A program made the position numbers and the translations under genes. A DNA stretch of 64,000 bases from Rhizophagus irregularis (taxonomy: Eukaryota), in NCBI RefSeq assembly GCF_026210795.1, contig NC_089432.1:1674001-1738000 (forward strand). Reading direction: 5' to 3'. Shown piece by piece: positions 29,901 to 61,370 of the stretch. The notes under the pieces are model-generated. The model saw only the letters and a list, made by a program, of their open reading frames with translations, ran no database searches and had not been told where the DNA came from. Numbering within the stretch: position 1 is the stretch's first letter; every line of letters starts with the position of its first letter.

Positions 29901-31947
29901 CAAAGTATTTAATTGTTCTTAGAATTAATGGTTAATTATAAAAGTAAACTCAATTATGGTTACAAAGCCGTATCTTGCTGAAACGCCGAAGTCCGAAATT
30001 ATTTCAATGAATTAATTTACTTAATAGCCGAAATTATATCCAAAATTATTTGAATTCTTTAACCTAAAATATACTAAATTGCATAGTTATTTTAAATTCT
30101 TTTATATAAAAAATATTTCAAATCCGAAATTCTTGCGAAATTACATTTTTTCAAAAATCAATTTAAAGGCCATCTATACATACTGTATGACAACATTTTC
30201 TTCGTGAATTTATTTTTTTATATTGTGATATAAGAAAAGGAAAACATGGACGAAATCGAGATTGAAATAGACGAACGCATAAAAGAAAGTGAATCTGTTG
30301 ATGATCTGGAAAGTGGGAACCATACAAATGAAGAAAAAATTAATCATATAGCAGTTAGCCCAGACGGTTCGATTGTAGCAACGTTTAATCCAGGTAAGTT
30401 ATAATATTATTTTATGTATCAATTTTTATATTAAAAGTATGAAGTTATATTCCTCTAAACTTATTTTTTTCAGATGGTACTTCCATATCAATTGCAAAAG
30501 TAGCAACAAATTACAAGGCAAATAAACAATTTAATATAAATAAATTCAAAAAACCAACTAATATTCTTGGATGGTCTTTAGCAGTTTCGGACATAATCGA
30601 TACTGAAAGTGAAACTTGTTTGGTTGCAATTTCTTGTGTAACTAATAATGACATAAATCTAAAAGAAATTGAGGAAGGCAGTCTTCGAGAATTATATAGA
30701 TCATTTCAAATTTTTATCAAAAAACAATTATCATTCTGGGATTCCCAACTCTTTTTAATCTTATTATTTATTTCATATATTGCTATCTCTACTTTTATCC
30801 CTACTTTTATTTTGAATTTTGACAGCACCTTTGATAAATCAAATCTTTTCTTTTACCTGTTTTTTGTTATCATTACCATTTGCACTCTTTTCTATTACGA
30901 ATATACTCACATTCGTAAAATTCTAGGAACCGATATTAAACAATTTCGATTATCCTGTACTTCTGGTGAAGGGATGATAAAACTTTTTATGTATTCATTT
31001 AACAATGATGATAATAACAATAACGATTATAACAACAATTCGATATGTCATATTGGTGGAGCACTTACCTTTTTAAAAAATTCTAAAAATTCATTAAAGA
31101 ATGTTGCAACTCTAATTTGCATGAATTGTGTAAAAATACAAAAGATTAATGTCAAATTGAACAAAAATATCTCTATATCAAAAGAAGGTACCTATTTATT
31201 ACCAGAAAATTTATTTAAAAAATTAGAAAGCATTGATGATTCAAGACGCAATTGGAAATATCTTTTAAAATCTAGGTTTCAGGAATATTTAGTGGTTAAT
31301 ACAAGCAATTACCAAAAAATAAATATTGAAATATATAATGTAAATAATTTACAATTAGTGAATGTTTTTTATAGGAATCGTGAAGAAAACCTTTTAATTA
31401 CAAATGATAACGAACCTAGAATTTTTGCGATATCAACTGATTCAAGATTATTTGCTTATTCTTATGGAGATAAAATTATTACACTTTATTTAATGGAAAA
31501 TGGTCTTGAAGTTGTTTCAAAAAAATTTGACAACATTTATAAAATTAAATTTTTAGAATTTATTGAAAAAGATAAAAAATTATTCATTATTGAAGAGAAT
31601 AAAGAACATGATGTGAAATTTCATATTTGGATTATATCAGGATGTTTAAATGATTATTTTTCTATTTCTAAAGATGATATTGGTTTATCGGATAGTAATA
31701 TCCCTACTCCGTCAAAATATGATGAGCATTTCTACTATACTCTGGCAAAAGCAAATGGAAAAGTTGTTTTTCATAATAAAGATAATGAGGATCAGTTTAA
31801 AGTTGTACATGAGATAATTACAAAAAGGACAACCTTTGGAGAAGACGACACTGTAGTTGATGAGCATGAATATAAATCATATGATCTAGAACCATGGAAT
31901 AATAGTACAAAGAATGTTCGAGGTACAGTGCGGTACCTCTATAATAG

Positions 31948-33871
31948 CCCTATGAAAAAAAATCATCCAATTTTTGTACAATATTTGTTCAAGTCCGTAT
32001 GGAAATTGTACAATTATTGCAGATTTTTGGATAAAAATAGCTATGAAGTTTTTCATAGCATATTAAAAGTATGCAATTTTTGTACAACTTAAATTTAGGA
32101 TATAGAAAATGTTCAATTTTTGTGTGATCTTTATACAACTTAAATTTAGAATACAGAAAACATTCAATTTTTGTACAATAAAAATTGTGATTATTGTACA
32201 ACCCCTATGAAAAAAAATCATCCAATTTTTGTACAATATTTGTTCAAGTCCGTGTGGAAATTGTACAATTATTGCAGATTTTTGGATAAAAATAGCTGTG
32301 AAGTTTTTCAAAGCATATTAAAAGTATGCAATTTTTGTACAACTTAAATTTAGGATATAGAAAATGTTCAATTTTTGTGTGATTTTTATACAACTTAAAT
32401 TTAGGATACAGAAAACATTCAATTTTTGTACAATAAAAATTGTGATTATTGTACAACTTGAAAATAGACTTAAATTTAGGATACAGAAAGCAATTTTTAG
32501 GTAATCCTACTATACTACTTTCCATCTTACCTGTATGGTTACATTTGACCACTTTTAGGGTCGAATTAAGGTTGCTTGTCTAAACCTCTTCAAAATCCTA
32601 CGATTAGTTTCGTCAAAATTTTACTATAGATTTATTATAGTTTCGGCAGAGTTTCGGCAGTTTCGGCATTTATAATAAGTTTCGGCAGTTTCGTCTTTCT
32701 CCAAAGTTTTGCCAGTTTTTTAATATAACTTTAATATAGTTTCGGCAGAATTTCGCTTTTCGGCGAAACGCCATCTTGCCTAAACCCCTAGGTTTCGGCA
32801 AGCAACCTTAGGTCGAATAGACCACTTTTAACCATTACAAATAGATTTTCCTAAGTAAAGTGATTTATGCAGTAAGGTTACACAAAATTCAACTGCATAT
32901 TTGCTTATAAACGGGCATCTTCCGGACCCATTGGTGAAATTTTTGTATCATCTTGTAACTAAAAAAAAGTCAAAAACTTTTTATTAGGTTACACAATTAG
33001 TTCTGACCGGAATTATAATTTGGCCAGAATTATGCGGTAAAAATCAACTCTTAAAATTATATATGTTGATCACGTGATCTGATCGTCAAAATAAATATGA
33101 TGACGCGAAATGTTTTTGTTTATGTTTTTTTAACCTTTTAACTTTTCTTCAACTTTCTTTTAAAATATTAAGTAAGAAAAACTTGTGTTCTTTATTTTTT
33201 TATTTTCCTAACTTTTTACATTTTAATGTTATTAACTTGCTTTCTTCACTAACTTCATACTTTTTTTTATTACTAATACTAATAATTTACTTTTTAACAC
33301 TACTAATTTGCTTTCTTCACTAACTTCATACTTTTTTATTACTAACACTATTAATTTACTTTTTAACACTACTAATTTGCTTTCTTCACTAACTTCATAC
33401 TTTTTTATTTAATACTAATAATTTACTTATACTAATAATTTACTTTCTTCTTTGATACTACTAATTTACTTTCATGTTACTAACATACTTTATTTTATTT
33501 TATTTTCTTACAAATTTTTATATTTATGATTATATCAAATTCAGTATTTTATTTATGAAATATTGTGTATATTTTTTATATTTTAAGTCAATAAAAAAAA
33601 TTCATAATTTCACTTTATAAATTGCCTGTTATTACTGTAAAATTTAACCTATAATTCCTAAAATATGGCCTAAAATTTGGCTCAAAAATCACACAATAAT
33701 TGTATAAATTCAGGTCAAAAATAGGATAATTATTGAATGAATTACCATGCAATAATTGTGTGATTTATTGCAATTTTTAGCACAATTATTGTATGGTCAA
33801 ATATACAGAAATCGTAGTGAATTTAATTGAATGATTTTTCAACAAAAATCACACAGACTTTTTTCATAGGG
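31948..33871. mobile_element. Non-autonomous TIR element with CCC...GGG termini (CMC/EnSpm-like, superfamily uncertain)
   Basis: CCCTATGAAAAAA ... TTTTTTCATAGGG; the first 255 bp are tandemly duplicated (second copy starts 32203); TTGTACAA/ACAATWATTG subterminal repeats. Confidence 0.75.
32567..32810. mobile_element. hAT-like MITE nested in the CCC element
   Basis: TIR TAAGGTTGCTTG / CAAGCAACCTTA; 8-bp TSD GGTCGAAT; internal GTTTCGGCA repeats. Confidence 0.9.
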
Positions 33872-36226
33872 TATAATGATTTGGAGTTATGTGATGACTT
33901 GGAATTAGAAGACACGTATCTAAAATCGGCCAATGATTTGACATTAGCTTTAAAATTTTGTCAAGGTAACATTTTTAATTTCTTTGTTATTTACTATATA
34001 TTTTGACAACCAATTTCATTATTAGATCGAGATGCTGTTATGTTAGCATATTTATTAGAATATTACTCTGAAAATTCTATGACTCATATTGGCTGGATGA
34101 TTAATGTTACAAAAATACTTCCAGAGTTATCAGAATTATCTAATCATGATTATTATGGTATAATAATGTATTTGTTATTCAATTAATATTATTATATGTA
34201 TATATATTTCATTAAAAAAGATATTATTTTTTATTCATATAGGTAATTATATGGATTTAATACTCTATAAACCTTGTTTTGGAGAAATGAAGTACAATTT
34301 TCCAATTAAAAAATTCCGAGCGTTATCAGTTTGTCAAGATACATTAGAAGTATATGTACCTCTTACTAATCTTTTATCAACAAATTCTTCGGATCTTTTT
34401 TTATATAATAAAATGAGGTATACATCATATAATCTAATTAATTTTAGATCTTTTACTGATGATATTTCTTAATACAGGGAGGATATATTGCCCAATACTT
34501 ATATGGTTCCACTTCCAAATTTTACAACACATGATGCAAAAATTGAAGGAAAATCCAAAAAAGGAATTATACCTTTTTTGAAAAAAACATTTTTTCCACC
34601 TGGCTATAAGAACTTTGGAGACGAAAAATTTAGCCCATTTCTTCAAATTAAAAAAAACGAAGAAGTATTTTTTAGCATTCCAGCAATAGAAGCAGCTATA
34701 AATTCAAGATGGCATCAAGCAATGGCATATTGGATAAGACCATTATGTTTATATGCTATATTTTTAATTCTGTTTGCTATTATTCTTCAGTTTTACAAAG
34801 TACAAGATGTAACTGAATTTACGCAAGTCGGAAGCGGAATATTTTATTATATTGGATTATATCTATTAGTAAATGAATTTATGCAAATAAGGAAGTATAA
34901 GGTCAAATACATTACAATATTTAATTTATTTGATCTAAGCAGTATTATTTTGGGTATGATTGCCGTTTCTTTGGATTTTGTTTTTTTCGTACCCATTATT
35001 TATACAGTAGTTACATTGATACTTTGGATTGAAATGGTATGGTTTATGACTTTTGGATACTAATTTTTAATAATTTTACATTAATTTATCTTTACTTTCT
35101 AAAGCTCTTATGGCTTCGATTATTTTCAGTAATAGCCATAAATATTTTTATTTTTGGAAATCTTTTGAAAAAGATCACACCATTTTTTACATTTATGTTT
35201 ATTTTAATAATTGGATTTGCGAATTCAATGTAATAGTATTCTTGTTTTTATTGTTATATTAAGCATGATATTAAAGAAAATTAACTTTATTTTATATTTA
35301 TATGCAGAATTTTTCTTCTTGTAACCCCATCAAATTTAACTTATACATTAGAAGATAAAAATGCAGAATATAGTTTCACAGGTCCAATTCAAGATAATCC
35401 TGTTGATACAATATGGAATGCTATACTTTCCATGTACTATTTGAGTACAATTAATTTGAATAGTTATAGCGATGATTCGCTATTTAAGCTATTTATTTTT
35501 GTTGCTAATGTTGTTATAGTTCTTGTTCTATTTAATATGATTATTGCATTGATGAAGTAAGTAATATATTTACTAAATAGTATTTGTTTAAATGCTTATC
35601 TGACCTTTAAATTTATGTTTAGTGACACATTTAAAAAAGCCAAAAATGATGGTAATATTGGACTTTTGATGTACAGAAAAGAACTTATTGATGATTTTGA
35701 AAGACTTGATATTCCCTTTAATAAACTTCAACTACATGATTCACCATATATTTGTTATCTTCAGGATCCTAACTTGATGAAAAAATGGATGAAAAAATCT
35801 CAAGAGCTTAGAAAAACAAAATTGTATTCATGGTTTAAAGAGAGTGTTGATAAAGAAAATATAACTTATGATGGAGTTGACATTACACCTTGGTATAAAC
35901 TTATTTTAAGTAATGAGAATCAAGATTCTATATCAACTCCTGATCATATGACACTTTGGTTCTAGTTCTTTTACTTTTATTTTTATACTTAGATTATATT
36001 GTATTTATTTTGATGTACTTTTTATTTTATTATTATTTATTCATTAAAGAATTAATTAACATGATATTATTTGATTAAATTTTAAAATAAATCTTTATTT
36101 TGTTCAATCTCTATATATACGAAAGTATGAAATTAAGTATATTTTAAATATATTTTAAAGTATACTTTTAGTGTATAAAAATATACTTTACTGAAACCCA
36201 TGAAATCGCGACTATGTAGTAGCCAT

Positions 36227-36855
36227 TGTAATGCCGTAGTATATCTAGTAAATTTATTAATTGTGAGGCGCAGTATTACATTTAGTCTTAGTGTATAAAA
36301 TTTTAACTTATTTTTATTTTTATTTTAATTGGACCGAAAAGTCGTTAAACTATTAATCATGAGAATCAAGGATAATTGGTCTGTGATGACCTTAAACTAT
36401 TAGTCACGAGATTTAAGGATAAATGAAGATCCGAAAGATACTAAATTGGATGAAATCAAGTGATCTGAGGTGTCAAGTGATTAATTTGTTGATCACTACG
36501 TTAATATTATAAATCATAATTCAGGAGTTCATGATGATCAAATGGATACAAAATTAAGATAATGGAAATACTTTAAGATAATGGAAATACTTTAAAATAA
36601 TGGAAATACTTTAATAATTTAAATCCATGAATCGAAATTATGAATTTAGTTACACAAAAACAAACATAAAAGGGCGTGAAGATCAACTATTGAAAAAATA
36701 GAGAAATTGGACGAATTTTGTTATGAATTATTTATTTTGTTATTTAATGTTATTAAACCAAGCATATTATTGTATTTATTTATATTATGAATAAAGAGTC
36801 ATTTTGTTAATACCTGAGGTGGCAAACATAATTCTCTATGGGCTCAGGTGTTACA
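36227..36855 (+). repeat. 5' LTR
   Basis: TGTAATGCC...GGTGTTACA; matches the 3' LTR except T36382 versus C46759 by eye. Confidence 0.98.
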
Positions 36856-36857
36856 AG

Positions 36858-36874
36858 TGGTGCATGCTCCGAGA
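36858..36874 (+). promoter_or_regulatory. Primer binding site, probably tRNA-Gly
   Basis: TGGTGCATGCTCCGAGA lies 2 nt after the LTR; it is the complement of a tRNA 3' end ...TCTCGGAGCATGCA-CCA. Confidence 0.85.
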
Positions 36875-37448
36875 AAGGAAAAGTGATCATCCTCACATGA
36901 TCACTACAGGTTATAAGTACAGGATCTCTGAGAAAAGAAAATGATCACCCCCACGTAATCATTAGAAGTTACAAATAAAGGATCGACGAAGTTAAGGAAT
37001 TATAAAATTAAAAGTTCTAAGTCTTGGTTAAAAAAGAATTTAAGGTGTATTAACGTTAAATTTTAATAAAATAAAGTTAAATATTTTTAAGGATACGTGA
37101 AAATAATGGTTACCAAGGTAAAAGGTATTAATTTGGGTGAGTATGACCATAAATGTATAAAGAGATAATGTTAAAAATTAAATTTTTGATCTAACTTGAC
37201 CACCGGCTGATAAGTCAATGAAAAATTATTATTGCAATAATTTTCATACATATGAACCAAATATGTATGGTAGTAATTGATTATCAAGGGAAATGCGAGG
37301 CTAATCAAGTTAGAAGGGGTTTTAATAGAATATTGTAAATAAGTTCCATGAATTAAGGATTAAAAATAATTTTTATAAATAATTGAGGTTAAGTTAAGGA
37401 TAAAAAGTGTACCCAAAAACCGACACTATAAATACGATGGTAGGGTAA

Positions 37449-37657
37449 TTCTGTGTGAACTCAATTGAGGTTTTCTGTGTGATCAATTGAGAATAGTTCT
37501 GTGTGAGCTTTTTCTGTGTGAACTCAATTGAGGTTTTCTGTGTGATCAATTGAGAATAGTTCTGTGTGAGCTTTTTCTGTGTGAACTCAATTGAGGTATT
37601 CTGTGTGATCAATTGAGAATAGTTCTGTGTGAACTTTCAAAAACAATTCTGTGTGAG
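37449..37657 (+). repeat. 63-bp x3 tandem repeat with ~10 TTCTGTGTGA motifs in the element's 5' leader
   Basis: Directly visible periodicity. Confidence 0.9.
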
Positions 37658-37771
37658 GGTACCCAAGAAGAATCATGATTAACGTTAACGAAAATAAAAA
37701 TAATATTTGCTGGACAAATATATTCAAGGAAAGTTATAAAAAGGTGAGGAATTCGATCTCTCACCCATAAA

Positions 37772-38455
37772 ATGGAATACAAAATCAATTTAACAAAAGA
37801 GGATTCAGAAAAATATTTGTGTAAAGGAAAAGGAATTAAATTAAAAATTTATAATGAAGACAATAAGGCCATCAGTCTAAAGACCATCTATGATGTTAGA
37901 CCACCCAAGAAAAAGAAAAAGAGATGTTTGACCTGTGATAATAGAGAACATGTGAAAAGGACCAAAAGTGAGAATAAAGTGGAAAGATTTATAAATGAAT
38001 TGTTGACACCGGTAAATGTGGAAGACCTATTGATACCAGAAATACAAAATGTAGAAATTCATGATGTTGAAAAATTAGTAGAAAGATACATCAGTCTTGG
38101 AAATACAAATGGTAAAAACATCTTAATATGGTACAATATTGGACAAATTTTTGAACGAGAAATTAAAGCAAGAATAAATCAAACAAAGCCAGACCAGACA
38201 GCTAGAGAAGAATTATATGATGAAATGATGGAATTTATAGTTAATGAAAGTACTGATGAAAAACAAAAGAAGAAGGAAGCATTAAGGAAAAGGATGCAAG
38301 GAGCTATAAAAATATATAAACTTTTTACTGAAATTGGTCAAGATAAGATATATAGAGTAAAGGAAACATTTGTAACGACTATTATAAAATTGACAAATCC
38401 GGAAATACAACAAATAATCGGACAAATCAAATATGGATTCACACTTCAACCTTAG
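37772..38455 (+). CDS. Retrotransposon accessory ORF1 (227 aa), function unknown
   Basis: Intact ORF with AAAATGG start, basic PPKKKKKR (NLS-like) segment, CxxC and a helical C-terminus RKRMQGAIKIYKLFTEIGQDKIYRVK. Confidence 0.8.
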   Translation: MEYKINLTKEDSEKYLCKGKGIKLKIYNEDNKAISLKTIYDVRPPKKKKKRCLTCDNREHVKRTKSENKVERFINELLTPVNVEDLLIPEIQNVEIHDVEKLVERYISLGNTNGKNILIWYNIGQIFEREIKARINQTKPDQTAREELYDEMMEFIVNESTDEKQKKKEALRKRMQGAIKIYKLFTEIGQDKIYRVKETFVTTIIKLTNPEIQQIIGQIKYGFTLQP

Positions 38456-38619
38456 GTTGGAAAATTTTATGGAATATAAATTTATTTGTACAAACCTGTA
38501 AACTACCATACTCAGTAATGAACAAATGAGGTAAAGGCAAGCCCAGTATAGGTCAAATAAAATATAAAAGAAGGATAAAAAGTAAAAGACGTGAAAATTT
38601 TTAGAGAATTTTATTAAAA

Positions 38620-41600
38620 ATGGAATGGTACCATGTTTGGAACGCTGGATATATAAACCATAAACAGGAACATGACCTAGGAGTGATAGAACCAGAGGAA
38701 TGTTTAGCATGTGAAATATGTAACCCAATAGAAAGAGAAGTATCAGCGGCATTCAAGAAATTTTGGGATGTTTTATTTAAATTCGAGGATACAATACTAA
38801 TGTACAATAATGTAACACATAAAGAATTATTGAATTTATTAAGTATGGACAATAGAGAAAGGGAGGATACAATACATAAAGGAAAATGTAGGAATATAGT
38901 AGATAGAATAATTGAATCAATAAGGTACAGACAACAACCAAAAATGAAAGAAAAAGGTTTAAGGATAATAATTGTAGTAATTGTAAGGGATTGTATTGAA
39001 GGAAATTTGGAAAATGAAGTATTTGACCGGTTAATTGGATGTCCAGAAATAATGGAACATGGATATATTTTGGAAGATTGGGATATTGAAAACAGATTTC
39101 AAAAATTTTGGGAATGGTACGGTTCAATATTAGAATTTGGGGTGGAAGTAATCCATGCGACACCAGAAACAATAGTAATATTCAGGGAATTATTATACAT
39201 GGAAGAAATCATAACTGAAAATATAGGAAAAGTAATTGATTTAACGAATACAATTGTTTACAGGAACCCATTAAGAGAGGGAGAATCAAAACAACAAGAA
39301 TGGGAAAGATTGATACAGAAAGTGTTACAAAGATTTATTGACACCAAACAATTTACAAGGGAACCTGAGGACCCAGAAAGTGATAGTCCTGAAAGTTATG
39401 AATTAGAGGACAGTGATGGTAGTATACATTATGAAATAAAAATAGAGGATGATGTCAAATGGACAGTGGAATCATTAAAAAGAAAAATTGAAGAAATGGG
39501 TGGAAGGTTCACCGACAAAGATATACAAAGAATGTGGGACCTAAGGATAAGGATAGAATTGATATTAACAGAGGACTTTTTAGGTACATTTTTCGAATTA
39601 ATGGGACTAAGTGATGAAAAATTAAAAGATGAAATAAATGAATGGTTAACAAAAGAAACATTAATATGTGGAAATTGTAGGAATAGAAAGTTACCTGATA
39701 TGATAGCAGACATTGGACAATGTAAAAATTGTGAACAAGAAGTATTATTAGAATTAAAGGACGACTTAGAAAAACTAGGGTACGAATTAAATGTGTCAGA
39801 AATAGGGAGAATAAGAGAATTCAGGATAAGCAATAGTATAATATTAACAACGGAATTTATGGAAAAATATCTCCAGGAAATTGATACGAATGACAAAGAA
39901 TTAAGGATAAAATTATATGAATGGATAAATGAAAATACCACATTTTGTGATGAATGTGGAATAAGATGGATGAACAATAAATTTGACGAAGGAAAAACCA
40001 AGTGTAGGGATTGTGAAAATGACGAAAATGAAATTGATATCAGGGTTAAAAGATTAAAACAAATATGTGATGATAATAAAATAGGAATAACTAATGGAGA
40101 GTTATTGAGGTTAATCAGTATGGGATATACTGATGGAGAAATACTGGATCAAGAATTTATTGAAATATTCCAAGGAAATAAAAATGAAATGGAGAAAAAT
40201 TTAAGGCGAATATTAGATAAATTTCTAAAACAGCAAGCTGGAATTGAGGATAGTGAAAGTAGTGGAAATGAATCTGATAATGAAAAATCTGATGGATCTG
40301 AAAAAGAATCAGATGGATCTGGAAAAGACGGAGAAATTTTAAATCCAAATGATACCGATAACAATGAAAATTTTGAAGAACCTTATGAAGAAAACATTAT
40401 AAATAGACCTGGTTTTGACTCAAGTGAAAGTTCAGAATCAAACCCTGAGGATAAAAGTGAAATATCTGATTATAATATAGAAAATTTATTTGAAACACCT
40501 TTAACACCACCGATACCACCAATTCTACCAATAGTACCAATAATTATAGGAGCAACAAGAGCTGAAGTAAGGGAAGATTTTAGAGCGGCTTTACTAGCAG
40601 CAACAGGACATGATATAGGAGGTAATTGGGCTGGATTAGTCGCAGCCAATCCATTAGCAAATGCAATTGAGGATGCAGGAAATGTAGCTGGAGGAATAAT
40701 TAGTATGCCACAATTTTATGGAAGGGAAGAAGAAGACATAAACGATTGGGTAAGACAATTTGAAACAGCATTTACTGCTATAGGAAAAGCAGCAGGAGTA
40801 AATGGAGCTAGACAAGCAGCAATGGCAGCTACCTGTTTGAAAGGTGCAGCAGCACAATGGTATAATGAAAAGAAGGAAGCAAACAATGGTCATTTGGTAA
40901 ATTGGCAAGATAACGATAATGATAATGATTTAAAACATAGGATTAAACAACGATTTACCAGGGAAGATGTTAGAAAAAGGAAAATGTTAGAATTAAGGAA
41001 AATAACACAAGGAGTAAATGAAAATGTTGAGGCATATACGATAAGGTTTAGACAAATATTAAGGATAGCTACCAGAGGCCATGCATTAGATGATGAATTA
41101 CAAGTGGATAATTATATCGAAGGATTAACACCAACATTGGGATATCAAGTCAGAAGACAAAACCCAGCAAATTTAAATGATGCAGTAAATACAGCAAGGA
41201 GAGAAGAGGAAGCTACTAATGAATTAATGAGAAAAACACTTAATATACCAATTAATACCCAAAGAAAAGGAATCGATATACAAGACGACAAGCCAAAGAA
41301 TATATTTGAAAAACCATTGGAGAAAAATTATGAGGATGACCTTGCCGACATGTTTAAAAAATTAGAGGTAAAACTAGTAAATCAACTTGGAGGGCAAAAG
41401 AGACCACCAAACAATAACAATAGACAAGGACCACCACCTCGAGCATGTTATAATTGTAAACAACCAGGACATTATGCAAATGAATGTAGGGTAAATAATG
41501 GTCAAAGAAACTATGGAAGACCAAATAATCAAAATTATAATAGAAGATCAAATAACTATAATGGAAGACCAAATAACTATAACAGACCACCAAACCACCA

Positions 41601-42204
41601 AAACAATAATCGAGGATTCAATGTAGTGGAATATGATAATTATAATGACCAATATGACCAATATGATTATGATAGTCAGGATTATCAGGATAATTATGAC
41701 CAAGGATATAGTTATGATGACCCGTATTACCAAGATAATGATGTAACATTTAACCATGTTGATCAAGATTTTTATATTGGTGAAAGACAAACGAGAAGTA
41801 ACATAAAGAATAGGTCAAGTAATCGAGATATAGATATGGAAATTGACCAAGAACAAACACGAAGAAGGAATAATAAATATGCAAGCCAAGAGGAAAGGGC
41901 AGCAGCATTACCAAAAAGAGGATTCACTGATGAAAGTCTGAGGAAAGCACAAGAAGCAAGGAGAAATAATAATACATGTAGAAATTGTGGACAAAGAGGT
42001 CACTATGCAAAACAATGTAAAAATGAACGTGTTGAAGGTATCCATAGGACAAGCGCATTTCAGAGGAACATACCAGAATATAACATAATAGAGGATCTGA
42101 AAAATACCAGAGCAAATGCAACCTTTTCACAAATTATAAACATGAGTCCAGAGCAAAGGAAAATATATTATGAAGGAATGAGAAGGTATCCACAAACAGA
42201 TTGA
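38620..42204 (+). CDS. gag: Gag polyprotein with a long N-terminal extension (1194 aa)
   Basis: Ty3-type capsid from ~40705 (PQFYGREEEDINDWV...LKGAAAQWY...QGVNENVEAYTIRF...YIEGL); two CCHC knuckles CYNCKQPGHYANEC and CRNCGQRGHYAKQC. Confidence 0.93.
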   Translation: MEWYHVWNAGYINHKQEHDLGVIEPEECLACEICNPIEREVSAAFKKFWDVLFKFEDTILMYNNVTHKELLNLLSMDNREREDTIHKGKCRNIVDRIIESIRYRQQPKMKEKGLRIIIVVIVRDCIEGNLENEVFDRLIGCPEIMEHGYILEDWDIENRFQKFWEWYGSILEFGVEVIHATPETIVIFRELLYMEEIITENIGKVIDLTNTIVYRNPLREGESKQQEWERLIQKVLQRFIDTKQFTREPEDPESDSPESYELEDSDGSIHYEIKIEDDVKWTVESLKRKIEEMGGRFTDKDIQRMWDLRIRIELILTEDFLGTFFELMGLSDEKLKDEINEWLTKETLICGNCRNRKLPDMIADIGQCKNCEQEVLLELKDDLEKLGYELNVSEIGRIREFRISNSIILTTEFMEKYLQEIDTNDKELRIKLYEWINENTTFCDECGIRWMNNKFDEGKTKCRDCENDENEIDIRVKRLKQICDDNKIGITNGELLRLISMGYTDGEILDQEFIEIFQGNKNEMEKNLRRILDKFLKQQAGIEDSESSGNESDNEKSDGSEKESDGSGKDGEILNPNDTDNNENFEEPYEENIINRPGFDSSESSESNPEDKSEISDYNIENLFETPLTPPIPPILPIVPIIIGATRAEVREDFRAALLAATGHDIGGNWAGLVAANPLANAIEDAGNVAGGIISMPQFYGREEEDINDWVRQFETAFTAIGKAAGVNGARQAAMAATCLKGAAAQWYNEKKEANNGHLVNWQDNDNDNDLKHRIKQRFTREDVRKRKMLELRKITQGVNENVEAYTIRFRQILRIATRGHALDDELQVDNYIEGLTPTLGYQVRRQNPANLNDAVNTARREEEATNELMRKTLNIPINTQRKGIDIQDDKPKNIFEKPLEKNYEDDLADMFKKLEVKLVNQLGGQKRPPNNNNRQGPPPRACYNCKQPGHYANECRVNNGQRNYGRPNNQNYNRRSNNYNGRPNNYNRPPNHQNNNRGFNVVEYDNYNDQYDQYDYDSQDYQDNYDQGYSYDDPYYQDNDVTFNHVDQDFYIGERQTRSNIKNRSSNRDIDMEIDQEQTRRRNNKYASQEERAAALPKRGFTDESLRKAQEARRNNNTCRNCGQRGHYAKQCKNERVEGIHRTSAFQRNIPEYNIIEDLKNTRANATFSQIINMSPEQRKIYYEGMRRYPQTD

Positions 42205-42744
42205 CTACAAGAATCAATGAACAACATTGAAGCAGAACATTTAACTGCATTAAGGGGTAAATTAATAATAAACCAAGAATTAAAGGACGTAATGTTTGAT
42301 ACAGGAGCAGCAGTAAATGTAATAACTAGTCAGATAATGGATGAAATGGACCTAAAAATTGAGGAACCGAGTACAGTAAGATGTGTGATGATAAATGAGG
42401 ATAAATTAGCATCTAGGGGTACCACGACAATATACATACAATTTGGGGATAAAGAAATACCCATTAAGGTTGAAGTAATTGATTCAGGAAAAAACGAAAT
42501 TGTGTTAGGAAATGGAGTATTAGATATGTTCAAAGCAAATATAGATTACACAGATAAAACAATAATAATTAGAATGAATGATGAAACTATGGATATACCA
42601 GTAAAATACACACAAAGGACCATTAAAGGGTTTGAAGAAACATTTGATGAAGAGGAAATATTAGAAGAATTATACCAGGATGAATTGTATAACATATATG
42701 AAGATGACCATGAAGGTCAGGAAGATGAAAATTTTAAAATATAA
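42205..42744 (+). CDS. Aspartic protease, in frame with gag behind a single TGA
   Basis: FDTGAAVNVI catalytic motif and IVLGNGVL; same frame as gag. Confidence 0.9.
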   Translation, partial: LQESMNNIEAEHLTALRGKLIINQELKDVMFDTGAAVNVITSQIMDEMDLKIEEPSTVRCVMINEDKLASRGTTTIYIQFGDKEIPIKVEVIDSGKNEIVLGNGVLDMFKANIDYTDKTIIIRMNDETMDIPVKYTQRTIKGFEETFDEEEILEELYQDELYNIYEDDHEGQEDENFKI

Positions 42745-44219
42745 GTCTTGGTCAGAATGATACTGAAGAGACGATAAAGAAGCACAAAAGTGACCATGAA
42801 AAATTTACTGAAAAATTTAAAGTAGGGGACATAACCAATGAACAAAAAGGTAAATTAAAAGTATTAGTAGAAAAATATAAGGATATATTTGAGTACGATG
42901 GTGAAAAATATAATAGGACAAACCTAGTAAAACATGAAATCAGATTAAAAGGGGGTACTGAACCATTAGCCCAAAAGAGGTACAAAGAAAATGATGAAAA
43001 AGGTAAATTCATCAGAAAAGAGGTTGACGAGATGTTAAAATTGGGAAAAATTAGAGAATCTAGAAGTCCATGGTCTTCACCAGTGACTTTAGCAGGGAAA
43101 AAGTCGGGAAATTATAGATTTTGCATCGACTATAGAAAATTAAATAAAGTTACAATAACAGATGCATATCCATTACCGAGGATTGACGAACAATTAGAAA
43201 GGATAAGTTCAGGAAAATGGTTTACCAGTCTAGATTTAGCATCAGGGTTTAATCAGATAGAAATGGCTGAGGAAGATATTGAGAAAACAGCATTCATATG
43301 CTCAGCAGGATTATATGAATATAATGTCATGCCATTTGGGTTAACAAATGCGCCTGCAAGTTTTCAAAGGTTAATGGATAAAGTATTAAAGGAGTACCTA
43401 AATGAATTTGTGATAGTATACATTGATGATATAATGATATATTCGGAAAATTTTGAAGACCACCTAAAACACATAAAGTTAGTGTTAGAAAAATTAAAGG
43501 AAGCCAGTTTAATACTAAAGTTAAAGAAATGTATATTTGGGAAAACAGAAATAGAATTTTTAGGACATGTAGTTGGTAAAAATGGATTAAAACCAAGTCC
43601 AGGAAAGGTCGAAAAGATACAAAAATTAACAGCACCTATAAATATAAAAGGTGTAAGGTCAATATTAGGGTTATGTACGTATTATAGAAAATTTATTAAA
43701 GATTTTTCAAAAATAGTAAAACCAATAACATCTTTATTGAGAAAAGATGAAAAGTTCGAATGGGGCATCAAACAACATGAAGCATTAGAGATATTAAAAA
43801 GGAAATTAACCGAAGAACCGGTGTTAAGACAACCAGATTGGTTAAGGAAATTTATATTAATTACAGATGCTTCAGGAGTAGGATTAGGGGCAGTGTTAGC
43901 TCAAAAAGATGATAAAGGTCAAGAATATGTAATAGAATATGCCAGTAAAAGTTTAAACAGGACAGAACAAAGATGGCCAATAACCGAACAAGAATGTTAT
44001 GCAATTGTATGGGGAATACAACATTTCCATAAATACTTGATCAATAGAAAATTTGAGGTAGTAACAGACCATGCAGCTTTGAAGGGATTAATGACTGCAA
44101 AAGTACCAAAAGGAAAGAGATCAAGATGGGTCATGGAATTGGAACAGTATGATTTTGAAATAACCCATAGACCAGGAAAAGAAAATAAAAACGCAGATGC
44201 CTTATCAAGAATAATATAA
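42738..44219 (+). CDS. pol: Reverse transcriptase-RNase H (frame open from 42738, -1 relative to protease)
   Basis: VKHEIRL..PLAQKRY, SPWSSPV, RFCIDYRKLN, LDLASGFNQI, MPFGLTNAPASFQ, YIDD, TDASGVGLGAVL, EQECYAIVW, TDH, NADALSR. Confidence 0.97.
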   Translation, partial: NISLGQNDTEETIKKHKSDHEKFTEKFKVGDITNEQKGKLKVLVEKYKDIFEYDGEKYNRTNLVKHEIRLKGGTEPLAQKRYKENDEKGKFIRKEVDEMLKLGKIRESRSPWSSPVTLAGKKSGNYRFCIDYRKLNKVTITDAYPLPRIDEQLERISSGKWFTSLDLASGFNQIEMAEEDIEKTAFICSAGLYEYNVMPFGLTNAPASFQRLMDKVLKEYLNEFVIVYIDDIMIYSENFEDHLKHIKLVLEKLKEASLILKLKKCIFGKTEIEFLGHVVGKNGLKPSPGKVEKIQKLTAPINIKGVRSILGLCTYYRKFIKDFSKIVKPITSLLRKDEKFEWGIKQHEALEILKRKLTEEPVLRQPDWLRKFILITDASGVGLGAVLAQKDDKGQEYVIEYASKSLNRTEQRWPITEQECYAIVWGIQHFHKYLINRKFEVVTDHAALKGLMTAKVPKGKRSRWVMELEQYDFEITHRPGKENKNADALSRII

Positions 44220-44255
44220 ATAGATGGGTAAAAGAGTTACTTTTCAAAAATAAAA

Positions 44256-44495
44256 ATGGAACAAGTGGTAAGAAATACAAATCATAAAATAAAGGATATA
44301 ATCGAAAATTTAGAAGGTATAACAAAGGAATTAAACAGGATAAAGTATAACTATAAATTCAAAGCCAAAAATTTTGAAGATAGTGAAGAAAGACCATTAA
44401 TATTGGAAACTCAAGAGGAAATATTACAAATAGGGGTGATATTAAGTAAAGTAAACAAGCTAAAATTATCAGAATTATGTAAAAATGGGACCTAA
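44256..44495 (+). CDS. Small accessory ORF (79 aa, predicted coiled coil) between RNase H and integrase
   Basis: AAAATGG start; heptad-like IKDIIENLEGITKELNRIK; overlaps the next ATG by 11 nt. Confidence 0.55.
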   Translation: MEQVVRNTNHKIKDIIENLEGITKELNRIKYNYKFKAKNFEDSEERPLILETQEEILQIGVILSKVNKLKLSELCKNGT

Positions 44496-46266
44496 AATAA
44501 TAATCATATGTGGAGTTGATGGTACTGGAAAAACATTCATTGTAAATAAACTTATAAAAGAATTTGAAAAAGTAGGACAAAGTGTGAGGTTTAACACCTT
44601 TAAAAGGAGAAGAGAGGACAATGATAAGTATAAAATACCAAAGAAAGGTATAGAATGGGAATTCAGGAAGGAAGTTGTCGAACAAATCAACAGGAGAATG
44701 GAAGAACATGATAATGAAGATTGGTTAATATTAGATAAAAGTCCCTATAGTGAGTACTTTTATCAACAAACACCATCATTCGACAGAGGATACATAACAA
44801 GATATGAGAACCACCTATTAGAAAAGGAAGTATTTAGGAACAAAAGGATAATTGATGAATCAATAGTGATATTTTTAGAAAATGAAAAATGTTGGGAAAA
44901 TTACAAAGGTAGAGAACATTCGAAAAAGGATCAAGGACATAAAACATCATATCCATTATTAGATGAAGAAAGATATATGGAGATGGTGAAATCATTTAAA
45001 GAATGTCAAGATATTTACGAAGGAGAAAAATATGCTAATATTAAAATATCGAATAATGACACAGATTGGGAAAGAGTATATAATAAAGTAATAGAATTAG
45101 ATGGAGATAAACCACCAATAGAGGTTAAAAATGTTGAGATTAAGGATAACATCAGAGTAACTGATGGTAAAAAGCATATTGAGAAAAATGGTAAAAATAT
45201 AAGAATAATAGAAGACTTTGAAAAGATGGGAGCACTATATTTAGCTCACAGTCATGAATTATCAGCACATATGGGAATCAAAAGTACTTATGATAATTTA
45301 AAAGATAAATATTATTGGGAAAATATGCTGAATGATGTTGAAAGATATGTAAGGACATGTGATGAATGTCAAAGAAGAGGAAAACCACAAGGGAAAAATG
45401 AATTACACCCAATTAAAGTAGTAGAACCATGGTATCAAATCGGGATCGACTTTGTTGGACCATTGAACACAACAACAAATGGTAATAAGTACATCATAGT
45501 AGCAATGGATTATTTTACAAAATGGCCAGAAGCCAAAGCAGTAAAGGAAGCAACTGCCAAAGAAGTATCAAAATTTATTTATGAAGACATCATTTGTAGA
45601 CATGGATGTCCAATGAAAATATTGAGTGATAGAGGAAGTCATTTCAATAATGAAATGATTAAAGAATTAATGGAAAAATTCAAAATTAAATGGAATTTTT
45701 CTACAAGTTATCATCCAGAGACAAACGGACTTGTTGAAAGATTCAACCGAACATTAGGTCAAGCATTAGCAAAATTATCAACCAAAGATGATTGGGATCA
45801 AAGGATAGCACCCATATTATTTGCTTACCGAAATAAAAAGCATAGTTCAACAAGAATTCGACCATTTTATTTAACATACGGAAGAAATGTACGGACAATA
45901 ATGGATGAAAATATCAAAGAAATTAACCTAAGTGATAGAATAGTTGGATTATTAGAAGAACTACCAAAAATCTGACATGAAGCCAAAGAACAAATACTGA
46001 AATCTCAAACAAAACAAAAAGAGTATCATGACAGAAAAATAATCAAAGAACACACCTTTGGAATTGGAGATAAAATACTACTCTATGATAAAGCCAAAGC
46101 ACAACAACTATCGGGAAAATTAGAATCAAAATGGTTGGGACCATTTTACATTCATGAAATACTACCGAATGGAGCTTATAGAATTAAAAATATTAAAGGT
46201 GTCATCAAGAAGATACCTGTAAATGGAGAATTATTAAAGACTTACCATACACCGATGAGTAAATGA
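44485..46266 (+). CDS. dNMP/thymidylate-kinase-like P-loop domain fused to integrase (internal TGA at 45973-45975)
   Basis: N-terminal IIICGVDGTGKT and LILDKSPYSEYFY; HHCC (AHSHELSAH..CDEC); DDE core (GIDFVGP, SDRGSHF, VERFNRT); after the TGA the same frame continues with a GPY/F domain (GKLESKWLGPFYI) to TGA 46264-46266. Confidence 0.92.
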
Positions 46267-46498
46267 TAACTATCATCAATGGACTTAGAAAAATAAAGAT
46301 AATTTATAATCATGTGAAATAAAATCACATGACATAAAAATAATTTTCGAAAATAGGAAAAACTAATGAAAATTTCCTAAGAAAGACCAAAGTGAAATCC
46401 GGTACAAGAAAACCGTAGACTTAACAAACACATGATAAACCGCAGATGTAGACGCAGCAAAAAGGAATATTTAAAACGCAGCTGAGTCAAGTGACAAT

Positions 46499-46589
46499 GC
46501 ATGTTTGATTTAGTGGTATAATTCGCACCTACCACTTCGAGACACGAGTTCGATTCTTAGAATAAATTTAATGTGGGCATTAAATTTTT
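46499..46589 (+). ncRNA. Degenerate tRNA-Gly-like sequence with Pol III A/B boxes, hairpin and T5 inside the retrotransposon
   Basis: GCATGTT-TGATTTAGTGGTATAATT-CGCAC-CTACCAC-...-GAGTTCGATTCT; then hairpin AAATTTAATG/CATTAAATTT and TTTTT. Confidence 0.65.
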
Positions 46590-46591
46590 AT

Positions 46592-46602
46592 GCGGGGGAT
46601 AG
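46592..46602 (+). promoter_or_regulatory. Polypurine tract
   Basis: GCGGGGGATAG immediately before the 3' LTR. Confidence 0.8.
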
Positions 46603-46603
46603 T

Positions 46604-47232
46604 TGTAATGCCGTAGTATATCTAGTAAATTTATTAATTGTGAGGCGCAGTATTACATTTAGTCTTAGTGTATAAAATTTTAACTTATTTTTATTTTTAT
46701 TTTAATTGGACCGAAAAGTCGTTAAACTATTAATCATGAGAATCAAGGATAATTGGTCCGTGATGACCTTAAACTATTAGTCACGAGATTTAAGGATAAA
46801 TGAAGATCCGAAAGATACTAAATTGGATGAAATCAAGTGATCTGAGGTGTCAAGTGATTAATTTGTTGATCACTACGTTAATATTATAAATCATAATTCA
46901 GGAGTTCATGATGATCAAATGGATACAAAATTAAGATAATGGAAATACTTTAAGATAATGGAAATACTTTAAAATAATGGAAATACTTTAATAATTTAAA
47001 TCCATGAATCGAAATTATGAATTTAGTTACACAAAAACAAACATAAAAGGGCGTGAAGATCAACTATTGAAAAAATAGAGAAATTGGACGAATTTTGTTA
47101 TGAATTATTTATTTTGTTATTTAATGTTATTAAACCAAGCATATTATTGTATTTATTTATATTATGAATAAAGAGTCATTTTGTTAATACCTGAGGTGGC
47201 AAACATAATTCTCTATGGGCTCAGGTGTTACA
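46604..47232 (+). repeat. 3' LTR
   Basis: 629-bp direct repeat of 36227-36855. Confidence 0.98.
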
Positions 47233-48479
47233 CCATGCTGCCGCCACTTAACGTAGTAGGCGTACGGCTACTCTATATTAATTCTAACGCAGTTGTATGT
47301 ATTTAATATAGAAAATATATAGTAGATTATCATCATAATATAGAAATTGTATCGCCAATACAAAGAAACTATATAAATGTTAGCTAGAAACTGTATAAAT
47401 GATTTAAAGTAATGATATATGTGATTTGCATTAAACATGTAGTAAATTCATAGAAAATTTGTATTAACTTTATAATAAATATGCAGTAAATACATAATAA
47501 GTATATAGTGAATTCATAGTAAATACATAATAAATATATAACAAATTGCAGTAAATATATAGTAAATTCACAGTAAATACATTAAATATATAATAACAAA
47601 TTCATAGATATGAGTCTGATCACATTCCAAAAATCGTTAAGTATGGCGCAGCAAAATTGCGCCAAGTTCTCATGAACGAGACCCGGGAAATAAATTTGGA
47701 TGGGACGCATGATTAGGTGGCGTAGTCAGCCAAGCTGATTGGGCAGAAACTTTACTGCGGTATTTTTGGGACCCGAATGCGGAACCTCGTGGCGATGGTG
47801 TCCTAGCCAGCTAACGGAGATGTAAAATGTACTGATTGTAGGAAGTGTCTGGGGTATTTTACTACAGTCTCTTCTAATAATACGTAAGAAATAATTTCTG
47901 GTCGGACTTATCCTACGTAATTCGTCCCTTCGGCGTTTTTTTTGAAATTTCACGGATGCTCCTAATACAAATATTTCCAATAATTACAGGACACTATTTA
48001 CCAATATATATGGAAACCAGAACGTGAATGGTTCAAAACCTTTCAACTCCTCAAAAAAAGACAAATCCATTATCAACGTCGCTCAAAGAAAATTCGTCAT
48101 ACGGTAAACACAATCCTGCAACCACATCCACTTCATTACACCATACTCTCCGAGGTAATTCTCCGATCTCACTCAATCCTATGTCATGTGTCCCTATCTA
48201 CGTACCCTCGAAGAAAAAAGAAAAACACTTCATCTTTCCTATGAAGCTCGTAAATAACACCTCTCTACCGACGACGCGTTCATTAAATGGACGTTATCAA
48301 ATTATTCGCAGGCACTTGGATGTCTCATAGAAATATAGATAGATTTTTTTTTCTTTCGTATATAGAAAGTGGATTAGGTAATGAGGAATAAAGTGTATAG
48401 AATTATTAAAAAAATCGCGTTCTAAAGTTCACAGAAAGAGAAGTGAAAAGTTAATAACAATCACTGAAAGTAAATAAAT

Positions 48480-50570
48480 CTAAATAATCTAAATTAAAAA
48501 AACGAACTTATCATAGTTCGTTCTTTTAAATCCTGGTCGTTTAGCTTCGTCTCACGTCCAGGTTTCCTAAAAATAAAAGAAAGGGAATGTTAATAACGTT
48601 CCCTTAAGTAAAAAATAAAAATAGAAATAAAGAAACGAACTTACCATAGTTCGTTCTTTTTTTTTAAATCCTGGTCGTTAACGTCTTAACGATTTCGTTC
48701 GTCTAAGTTTCCTAAAAATAAAAGAAAGGGAACGTTAATAACGTTCCCTTAAGTAAAAAAAATAAAAATAAAAATAAAAAACGAACTTACCATAGTTCAT
48801 TCTTTTTTTTAAATCCTGGTCGTTAACGTCTTAACGATTTTGTTCGTCCAGGTTTCCTAAAAATAAAAGAAAGGGAACGTTAATAACATTCCCTTAAGTA
48901 AAAAAATAAAAATAAAAATAAAGAAACGAACTTACCATAGTTCGTTCTTTTTTTTTAAATTCTGGTCGTTAACGTCTTAACTTCGTTCGTCCAGGTTTCC
49001 TAAAAATAAAAGAAAGGGAACGTTAATAATGTTCCCTTAAGTAAAAAACCTAAGTAATTAATAGCGCAAGTAAAAATTAAAAAAAAAACCTAAAAAAAAG
49101 AAAAATGAACCCTTACCGCCTAGTTCGTTCTTTTTTTAAATCCTACGTTAACGTTCGATTAACGTTCGTTCATCCAGGTTTCCTAAAAATAAAAAGAAAG
49201 GGAACGTTAATAACGTTCCCTTAAGTAAAAAATAAAAATAAAAATAAAAAAGCGAACTTACCATAGTTCGCTTTTTTTTAAATTGTTCGTTTTTTTTTAA
49301 CGTCTTAACGTCGTTAATCAGGTTTCCTAAAAATAAAAGAAAGGGAACGTTAATAACGTTCCCTTAAGTAAAAAAATAAAAATAAAAATAAAAACGCTTA
49401 CCTAGTTCGTTCTTTTTTTAAATCCTGGTCGTTAAAAGTCTTAATGATTTTGTTCGTGGTTTCCTAAAAATTAAAAAGAACGTAACGTTCCCTTAAGTAA
49501 AAAAATAAAAATAAAAATAAAGAAACGAACTTACCATAGTTCGTTCTTTTTTTTTAAATTCTGGTCGTTAACGTCTTAACTTCGTTCATCCAGGTTTCCT
49601 AAAAATAAAAGAAAGGGAACGTTAATAACGTTCCCTTAAGTAAAAATAAAAAAAAAACCTAAAAAAAAGAAACGAACTTACCATAGTTCGTTCTTTTTTT
49701 TTAAATCCTGGTCGTTAACGTCTTAACGATTTCGTTCGTCCAGGTTTCCTAAAAATAAAAGAAAGGAACGTTAATAATGTTCCCTTAAGTAAAAAAATAA
49801 AAATAAAAATAAAGAAACGAACTTACCATAGTTCGTTCTTTTTTTTAAATCCTGGTTGTTAACGTCTTAATGATTTTGTTCGTCCAGGTTTCCTAAAAAT
49901 AAAGAAAGGGAACGTTAATAACGTTCCCTTAAGTAAAAAATAAAAATAAAAATAAAAAATGAACTTACCATAGTTCGTTCTTTTTTTTTAAATCCTGGTC
50001 GTTAACGTCTTAATGATTTTGTTCGTCCAGGTTTCCTAAAAATAAAAGAAAGGGAACGTTAATAACGTTCCCTTAAGTAAAAAAATAAAAATAAAAATAA
50101 AGAAACGAACTTACCATAGTTCGTTCTTTTTTTTTAAATCCTGGTTGTTGACGTCTTAACGACTTCGTTCGTCCAGGTTTCCTAAAAAAAGAAAGGGAAC
50201 GTTAATTACGTTCCCTTAAGTAAAAATAAAAAAAAAACAAACAAAAGAAACGAACTTACCATAGTTCGTTCTTTTTTTTTAAATCCTGGTCGTCAACGAC
50301 TTCGTCCACGTCCAGGTTTCCTAAAAAAAAGAAAGAGAACGTTAAATTACGTTCCCTTAAATAAAAAAATTAAAAAAAACCTTAAAAAAAAGGTTCTTTT
50401 TTTTTAAATCCTGGTCGTTAGGCTTCGTTCGTCCAGGCTTCCTAATAAAAAAGAAGGAACTATTAATTACGTTCCCTCAAGTAAAAATAACAAAAAAAAA
50501 GAAACGAACTTACCTAGTTCGTTCTTTTAAATCTTGGTCATCCTGCGTCCGTTCGTCCAGGAAAGGGTTT
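48480..50570 (-). repeat. ~146-bp tandem array (~15 units) with an exon/intron-like unit on the minus strand
   Basis: Unit contains GAACTTACCATAG...CCAGGTTTCCTAAAAATAAAA...GGGAACGTTAATAACGTTCCC; the minus strand reads TTTTTAG|GAAACC...CTATG|GTAAGT. Confidence 0.9.
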
Positions 50571-59800: not shown

Positions 59801-61370
59801 GAGGGAAAAAGAATTTTTTAGAGTTCCGGCTATAGAAGCAGCTATAAATTCGAGATGGCGTGATACAATGGCATACTGGATGGGTCCCTTATATTTTTAT
59901 GCTATATTTTTGACTTATTTCTCTTATCTTTCTCAGCTTTTATTAAATGGTGATGAGGAGTTTAATGCATTAATAAAGATTGGAATTGGAATATTTTATT
60001 ACACTGGAATATATTTATTGATAATCGAATTCAGACAAATAATGAAATATAGAACCAAATACATTACGACGTTTAATATAATTGATCTAAGTAGTATTAT
60101 TTTGGGTATAATTGTATTTTCTTTAATATCTTTTACTGTTAGAACCAGCAATGAAACAATTATGATTTTAGCATCAATGACTACACTAGTGCTATGGATT
60201 GAATTGGTATGATTAATGATTATTGGAATTTAATTTTTAAATAATTTTATCTAATTCATTGTTTATTTCTTCAAGCTCTTATGGTTTCGATTATTTTCAG
60301 TAATGGCCATAAATATATTTATTTTTGGAAATATTTTAAGAAAGATAATGCCATTTTTCATATTTATGCTCATCTTAATAATAGGATTTGGAAATTCAAT
60401 GTAATTTCTTTTATTATTATTCTTGTATTTAGTGTTTCGATTCATCATCAGTTTATTTGAGAAATTACTCCAGATTATGGATATTGATAAACTACATCTG
60501 TCTGATCCATCATTCAACTATCCTAGAAATCTAATTTGATGCTATCCGTCATTTGAAAAATCCAGATTTGTTGATTGATACCCGTAATCTGGTGGATAAT
60601 GAGTTAACGGGCTGGAAGACTACTTGTATTATGTTTAAAAAAATTAACTTTTACTTGTTTTATAATAATAGGTTTATTCTTTTTCAAGAACCATCACCAC
60701 TTTATTATTTAAAAGCCTCAAATTACACATTATATAACGGAACTGTAAATCTAACTTTAACAGGACCAAGTCAAGATAATCCTATTAGCACAATATGGGA
60801 ATCTATACTTTCCATGTACTATTTGAGTACAGGAAATTTGAATAATTATGATTATTGGCCATTAAAATTACTAACATTTATTGCCAATGTTATTTTAGTT
60901 CTTGTTATATTAAACATGCTTATTGCGTTGATGAAGTAAGTAATTTAATATCTATTAAAAATATATTAGTTTATTTTGTTTATTTAACCTTATTTAACCT
61001 TAAATATTTTTTTAAAAAAAATTTTCTTAGTGACACATTTAATAAAGCTAAGGAAGATGGTAATCTCGGATTATTGATATATAGAGCAGAACTTGTTAAT
61101 GATTTTGAGAAACTTGATACGTTTTCATTTTATAATTCATCATATATTTGTTATCTTCGAGATCCTGAATTGATGAAAAAATGGATGAAAAAATCTCAAG
61201 AACTTAGTAAAACAAAGTTATATTCATGGTTTAATGAAAGTATTAATAAAGAAAATATAACTTATGATGATGATGGAATTGACATTACATCTTGGTATGA
61301 ACTTATCTCAGGTAATGAAGATTATCAAGACTCTTCTCCTACACCTGATCATATGACACTCTGGTTCTAG
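56870..61370 (+). pseudogene. TRP-like cation channel paralogue 3, frameshifted
   Basis: Same exon structure (MDEIETEIDE...DHMTLWF). Frameshifts near 57982, 58600, 59248 and 59810; donor GT>GC at ~59088. Several lesions are in homopolymers, so sequencing error cannot be excluded. Confidence 0.75.
60430..60622. mobile_element. hAT-like MITE in an intron of paralogue 3
   Basis: TAGTGTTTCGA...TGGAAGACTA ends; perfect 8-bp TSD CTTGTATT; absent from the equivalent introns of paralogues 1 and 2. Confidence 0.8.

Follow-up and report, generated by a model that had tools for sequence, protein, structure and literature searches.

RESULTS

Organization of the element

The window, by which we mean the whole stretch of 64,000 nucleotides of Rhizophagus irregularis DNA that was analyzed, carries a full-length Ty3/Gypsy retrotransposon (36227 to 47232), and the stop codon considered here lies inside it (Table 1). 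Pfam matches follow the Ty3/Gypsy order of gag, protease (PR), reverse transcriptase (RT), RNase H, and integrase (IN). The two LTRs differ at 1 of 629 nucleotides and are bordered by a CCAT target duplication, which indicates that the element was inserted recently. All 26 matches of the protease search were labelled R. irregularis.

Table 1. Features of the Ty3/Gypsy element, in coordinates of the window
Feature	Position	Strand	Remarks
5' LTR	36227..36855	+	629 bp, TG...CA ends; 4-bp duplication CCAT outside
Putative primer-binding site, TGG start	36858..36873	+	position only
ORF0, 227 aa counted from the first ATG	37772..38455	+	upstream of gag; no Pfam match
gag, 1194 aa: long N-terminal extension, capsid, zinc knuckles; closes at TGA	38620..42204	+	
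Readthrough-type stop context TGA CTA CA	42202..42209	+	kept in L069, L070, L074, and L075
Aspartyl protease ORF, gag frame, 179 aa, TAA end (42742-44)	42205..42744	+	Pfam
Predicted -1 frameshift cassette: AAA codon 42736-38, 6-nt spacer, hairpin 42745-42772	42736..42772	+	
RT-RNase H ORF, -1 frame, first Met at residue 99	42738..44219	+	Pfam
79-aa ORF, 11-nt overlap with IN start	44256..44495	+	weak homologue in P0124
Separate ORF, P-loop (thymidylate-kinase-like) domain and integrase	44485..46266	+	broken here by TGA 45973-75
3' LTR	46604..47232	+	short purine tract before it, ~46591-46602

On the genomic RNA, ORF0 comes ahead of gag, which is therefore not its first ORF, and contig depth on ORF0 was below that on the gag core, PR, and RT. 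The N-terminal extension of Gag (38620 to 40700, about 700 aa) is acidic, contains Cys, and has no Pfam match; it is also present in P0412, another R. irregularis family. Outside the element, a multi-kilobase repeat with unannotated ORFs inside occurs in three diverged copies (19700 to 23000, 31100 to 35900, and 57700 to 61300), the second of which is directly followed by the retrotransposon, and about 13 degenerate units of 143 to 150 bp, each with short inverted repeats, occupy 48470 to 50500.

The stop codon between gag and PR

The first-pass annotation had read ACA GAT TGA CTA CAA GAA TCA ATG at 42196 to 42219 and placed PR in the gag frame behind a single stop. Both statements are correct: one stop, TGA at 42202 to 42204, separates the two genes and shares the frame of the gag ATG (38620). 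This frame has 1199 open codons ahead of the TGA and 179 behind it (CTA and 178 sense codons), with Pfam matches to Retrotrans_gag and zf-CCHC ahead of the stop and to an aspartyl protease with an FDTGA motif behind it. At 42202, UGA is thus followed by CU(A) and an open coding frame.

CTA is a rare codon in the element (20 of 2363 codons, 0.85%). Among 60 other ORF-closing stops of related loci, TGA-CT was found just once, in L076, where TGA-CTA closes the RT ORF and the frame behind shuts again after six codons. Because readthrough of this stop would lead nowhere, the motif alone proves nothing.

A search for RNA structure 3' of the TGA gave z values of −0.6 and −0.7 in the window, and the five loci compared shared neither a fold nor a pairing position, pseudoknots being outside the method; Rfam returned no matches. 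Structure-stimulated readthrough of the kind known from the MuLV pseudoknot or the alphavirus 3' stem-loop was therefore not recognized here, and the findings fit a signal consisting of the short UGA-CU(A) context, which was shown to suffice in Ustilago and HeLa cells (PMC4207609).

The stop in copies of the same family

The annotation had also cautioned that the TGA could be a CGA>TGA mutation like the one in IN. The IN stop (45973-75) does exist and is peculiar to this copy, since C was found at 45973 at full depth in four of four runs, and intact 593-aa IN homologues have Arg at this position. The gag stop behaved differently. Contigs of runs X17 (72 contigs; its label as RNA is a guess), X1, and X6 cover the junction, the X1 and X6 pieces stopping at 42207, and X18 has no coverage there. 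Among the 24 variant rows listed for X17, X1, and X6, none falls within 42198 to 42213, and no joint crosses the junction in these contigs; since contigs lose rare variants, this describes the common state. One X17 contig that spans the stop differs at 18 of 185 nt, among them 42196-97 and 42214, and has ATA in place of the ATG at 42217-19 (G>A at 42219).

None of the 26 NCBI models with this PR reads across the junction or contains the residues flanking the stop: the 18 that contain gag all skip the junction by a predicted intron, and the other 8 begin behind it. In a single protein of 434, P0309, LHSE is preceded by an in-frame Trp, to be explained by a TGG copy or by a gene call under a code with TGA as Trp. 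A sense codon in most copies, which would have spoken against programmed readthrough, was not found, and the stop is a family-wide feature.

Diverged relatives at the gag/PR junction

A profile-free protein search was run with the gag tail, an X, and PR as the query. The best 150 of 331 matches included 148 new ones, of which 16 have gag only, 69 PR only, and 63 a Gag-PR fusion. Twelve of the 16 gag-only matches end at query positions 111 to 117 (the stop being 117), while 53 of the 69 PR-only matches start at or after position 115, and 66 of them end before RT. Not every member of the lineage needs the stop, as 63 of the 148 more distant PR matches are plain Gag-PR fusions. Fused relatives provide a measure for the product of the window. 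From the last gag motif to the catalytic Asp, the median distance in the 27 fused relatives with a placeable motif is 54 aa (50 to 59 in 26 of them); in the window it is 54 aa if the stop is read through and 31 aa if the predicted intron is removed. The spacing in the read-through product therefore matches that of the fused relatives.

Metagenomes were scanned with the RT N-terminus; a PR alignment proved too variable for such use. Of 378 loci, 80 were kept and L069 to L090 were examined in detail; the other kept loci are distant clades with other layouts and are left out of the counts. Ten loci came from a scan of genome contigs, of which L149 and L150 were examined. Viral contigs contained no relatives by the RT protein or alignment A3, and 68 loci at 30 to 45% identity by alignment A1; L001 to L008 were scanned, and L004 and L007 alone were used, as outgroups. 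In a FastTree phylogeny of 28 sequences over about 175 RT residues, which cannot order events, the 12 closest metagenome loci (L069 to L080) and the window form one clade with a support of 0.99.

The gag/PR junction is visible in 6 of these 12 loci, and all six have an in-frame stop 30 to 43 codons before the PR motif. The annotation had proposed conservation of TGACTA in diverged family members as a check, and TGA CTA CA was indeed kept in four of the six junctions (L069, L070, L074, and L075, all TGA CTA CAC TCG). The two others deviate: L073 has TAA CTA CGC TCG (3 upstream codons visible) and L080, whose RT frame is broken, has TGA ATA CAA TCA (5 upstream codons visible). CTA and TGA are thus each present in five of six junctions and both in four, counts that are not independent draws because the loci share ancestry. 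L069 and L075 are 67% identical, which leaves about four families with the full motif. The PR of the diverged loci is 24 to 37% identical to that of the window. In 10 related loci, CTA accounts for 12.8% of the codons for Leu and TCG for 4.5% of those for Ser, so the constraint at the junction acts on nucleotides. The codon 5' of the stop varies and is GAT in the window.

From PR to RT

RT lies in the −1 frame relative to PR in the window and in all six loci where the junction can be seen. The arrangement AAA, 6 nt, and GTCTT-GG-stem-A-GAGAC is shared by the window and seven loci (L069, L070, L073, L075, L077, L079, and L080), which places a potential stimulatory structure within the usual 5 to 9 nt downstream. 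In the upper stem, 29 of 32 cells are paired, against a mean of 21.6 in shuffles; none of 20000 shuffles, which ignore relatedness, reached this value. The upper stem covaries, its first three pairs showing 2, 2, and 3 pair types, and the window hairpin has −8.5 kcal/mol (z −2.3). In L074, RT is likewise in the −1 frame, yet both the hairpin and the overlap are missing.

A AAT TTT (42729-35) was considered as a slippery heptamer and rejected, because the next −1 codon is TAA; a shift would then have to take place on the AAA codon (42736-38) or past it. Only L073 has a classical X XXY YYZ site (C CCA AAA), and the conserved part is the AAA codon after A or TTT. The putative readthrough signal and the predicted frameshift signal are 540 nt apart.

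A sister clade with the motif at another boundary

The tree separates the clade of the window from a sister clade (support 0.99 and 0.98). In L081, L082, L084, and L086, gag and PR are joined in one ORF, and PR is separated from RT by just one in-frame TGA with CTG or CTA behind it; L085 and L149 have TGA CTA at the same PR/RT boundary. L082, L084, and L085 belong to one family, so that the sister clade comprises about four families (L081, L082/84/85, L086, and L149), and L083 is decayed and uninformative. Judged from these alignments, the same motif at a different gene boundary would be hard to explain except as a recoding signal.

Two further observations concern this clade. A motif, ACGACCAGG..ATGTC...AAACTG.TTCCAG, occurs in the RT-IN gap (L081:2830-2860, L082:7220-7310, and L085:1900-1990), doubled in L082 and L085, and is possibly an RNA element for IN expression. 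L149 is a decayed element binned in a bacterial MAG, probably as contamination.

Integrase outside Pol

IN is not part of a Pol polyprotein in the window: the RT-RNase H ORF stops directly after the last RNase H motif, and IN follows in its own ORF and another frame. Among RT homologues, 75 of 93 end at most 45 aa past RNase H, and 13 of 93 carry a kinase-like motif as a tail. The IN core motif was found in none of the 93, in a search that excluded proteins of >863 aa. Of the 107 IN homologues with a placeable HHCC, 93 start with a Met 48 to 66 aa before it. Both homologue searches were limited by length, so that fused forms could not appear in them. The separate IN ORF is, moreover, seen directly in DNA in all informative loci (L070, L082, L085, L086, and L088). 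At the end of the RT ORF, L070 (3011-3018) and L081 (2824-2828) have a TAATG stop-start overlap, and in L070 this ATG opens IN.

A short ORF between RT and IN is present in L082 and L085 as in the window (44256-44495), where the 79-aa ORF could couple IN translation. The P-loop domain (44485-45120) has weak thymidylate-kinase matches and forms the N-terminus of IN in the window family; in related families it stands at the C-terminus of RT-RNase H, the sequences compared being the window, P0151, P0154, P0163, L070, L074, and L076. A PDB search with this kinase-like domain matched P-loops only, and Pfam gave no chromodomain match on the IN ORF.

DISCUSSION

How the element expresses PR has to be explained in the presence of a stop codon between gag and PR. 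The first-pass annotation inferred programmed readthrough, and this is the best-supported mechanism, given that the stop is family-wide and that TGA-CTA is kept at 24 to 37% PR identity. From sequence comparison, we consider TGA-CTA to be a conserved stop that is partly read through, giving mostly Gag and a minority of Gag-PR fusion, with a probability of roughly 0.85. Decoding of UGA by a near-cognate tRNA would be infrequent and would be promoted by the short UGA-CUA context.

It could be argued that the TGA arose from CGA or TGG by nonsense mutation, and that the copy is dead or belongs to a non-autonomous subfamily. CpG is depleted in the element (observed/expected 0.53), the IN stop has this kind of origin, and P0309 carries Trp at the equivalent place. 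However, the stop is at the same place in all six diverged loci that show the junction and closes 12 gag clusters, the aligned contigs have no sense variant, and LTRs differing at 1/629 nt imply that an element with this stop layout transposed recently. The mutation is thus largely refuted, and its probability is negligible. Splicing, which is in use by some plant and insect elements, would remove the stop with a 69-nt intron (42186 to 42254, GT...AG) and join gag and PR. Eighteen of the 26 NCBI models skip the junction in this manner and a branch-point-like TTAAC lies ahead of the AG, but the models disagree over the splice sites and no joint appears at the junction in the aligned contigs. 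The cut would also drop 23 aa, including a conserved strand before the PR motif, shorten the gag-to-Asp spacing to 31 aa, against 50 to 59 aa in 26/27 fused relatives, and leave unexplained both why CTA is conserved and why the sister clade has the motif between PR and RT. We therefore regard splicing as very improbable.

Alternatively, PR might be made apart from Gag with its start at the AUG at 42217, either because ribosomes reinitiate behind the gag stop or because a promoter lies in the junction. This ATG is four codons past the stop, P0002 is modelled from there, and the same element apparently starts IN at its own AUG; in addition, Tca2 has a minor promoter in its gag-pol junction (PMC2194720). 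Against this, the diverged copy has ATA at this place, and the PR ORFs of the seven sequences have their first Met at residues 5, 7, 9, 13, 20, 28, and 81; in L075 this Met comes only behind the catalytic Asp (residue 35). Reinitiation, moreover, needs neither the same frame nor CTA. We consider a separately made PR very unlikely, although a shade less so than splicing, and return to readthrough as the preferred reading.

The broader gag-pol readthrough picture of the annotation holds at gag and needs revision beyond it: readthrough would yield Gag-PR only, RT is in the −1 frame, and IN has its own ORF. We suggest that the hairpin, placed 6 nt beyond the AAA codon at 42736-38, may induce some of the ribosomes making Gag-PR to slip by −1 on this codon or immediately past it, which would give a Gag-PR-RT-RNaseH product of about 1,870 aa, and that IN, behind the kinase-like domain, would be started at its own AUG at 44485. 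The supply would then be graded, with Gag above Gag-PR and Gag-PR above Gag-PR-RT, and with IN made apart. With slightly better than even confidence, we extend this to a widespread Ty3/Gypsy lineage of arbuscular mycorrhizal fungi that would use UGA-CUA readthrough into PR, a non-classical hairpin-assisted −1 slip into RT-RNase H, and an IN outside Pol with its own AUG (sometimes in TAATG) on a virus-like polycistronic RNA, in which the kinase-like domain hops between RT and IN and the readthrough signal has moved between gag/PR and PR/RT in sister clades.

To judge from these comparisons, this is the first indication found in our literature search that UGA-CUA readthrough may work in arbuscular mycorrhizal fungi. 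The pair of readthrough followed by frameshift would be a natural two-signal cassette, and the motif at two gene boundaries in sister clades a natural experiment on Gag : PR : RT ratios. How an IN made outside Pol gets into the particle becomes a question of its own. The elements also seem "dead" to annotation pipelines; because all 26 NCBI models skip the stop or start behind it, the active elements of these asexual fungi may be undercounted.

Comparison with known recoding systems

In fission yeasts, Tj1, Tosmo1-3, and Tcry1 have an in-frame TGA-CT[A/G] closing gag (bioRxiv 10.1101/2022.12.06.519325), and removal of the gag stop of Tj1 abolishes transposition (PMC4600332). The annotation had contrasted the gag-pol readthrough of gammaretroviruses with the more frequent frameshifting of Ty3/Gypsy elements; the fungal Ty3/Gypsy elements named here are already known to use readthrough at gag. 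They resemble the window element in being fungal Ty3/Gypsy elements with TGA-CTA or TGA-CTG at the end of gag. However, one readthrough gives them all of Pol (PR-RT-IN), whereas it gives the window element PR only; they have a conserved GAA before the stop, where the window has GAT and the 5' context varies; and they have a single Pol ORF and an IN with a chromodomain, in contrast to the split Pol of the window and its lack of a chromodomain match. The window element does not fall within this chromovirus group.

Skipper-1 of Dictyostelium, reportedly described by Leng et al. in 1998, is said to place pro behind gag and one stop codon and to enter pol by a frameshift, the two-step principle that is also proposed for the window element; in Skipper-1, the shift is said to be +1 and the stop to be followed by a pseudoknot. 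Skipper is cited among readthrough retrotransposons (bioRxiv 10.1101/2022.12.06.519325), and Skipper-1 is drawn with just two ORFs, gag and PR-RT-RNH-IN-chromodomain (PMC5006619). In this drawing IN is part of Pol, whereas it is a separate ORF in the window element.

Tca2 of Candida albicans is a Ty1/Copia-type element. Its gag and pol are split by an in-frame UGA with a predicted pseudoknot, and the junction alone gave no readthrough in yeast reporters (PMC2194720), a result that counts against the reading preferred here. The in-frame UGA between gag and pol of a fungal LTR element is the feature it shares with the window.

In Ustilago maydis and in HeLa cells, the UGA-CU context is sufficient for readthrough (PMC4207609). 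The host genes concerned have the same minimal context as the window, tested in Ustilago and HeLa and not in Glomeromycotina; there, readthrough adds short targeting tails to enzymes, whereas in the window it would add a retrotransposon PR, and the +4 nucleotide of the window is C and not the favored G.

Among retroviruses, MMTV and HTLV make Gag, Gag-PR, and Gag-PR-Pol by two serial frameshifts, whereas the window element would use readthrough and then a −1 shift. The gag-pol readthrough of MuLV uses UAG and a pseudoknot (PMC5009743). In gammaretroviruses and double-frameshift retroviruses alike, recoding sets the ratios of Gag to enzymes, as is proposed for the window element; unlike it, they keep IN in Pol, as far as is known.

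The three-tier layout is not described in the available portions of PMC5009743, PMC5911963, PMC3248453, or bioRxiv 10.1101/2021.03.30.436303, the last of which mentions neither readthrough nor frameshifting in that portion. Our literature search, with Repbase and most subscription papers outside its scope, found no description of recoding or of a free-standing IN in these elements. The TGA-CT signal at gag is already known from other fungal elements; what appears new here is the proposed plan of a PR reached by readthrough, an RT in the −1 frame, and a separate IN, with the signal relocated in a sister clade.
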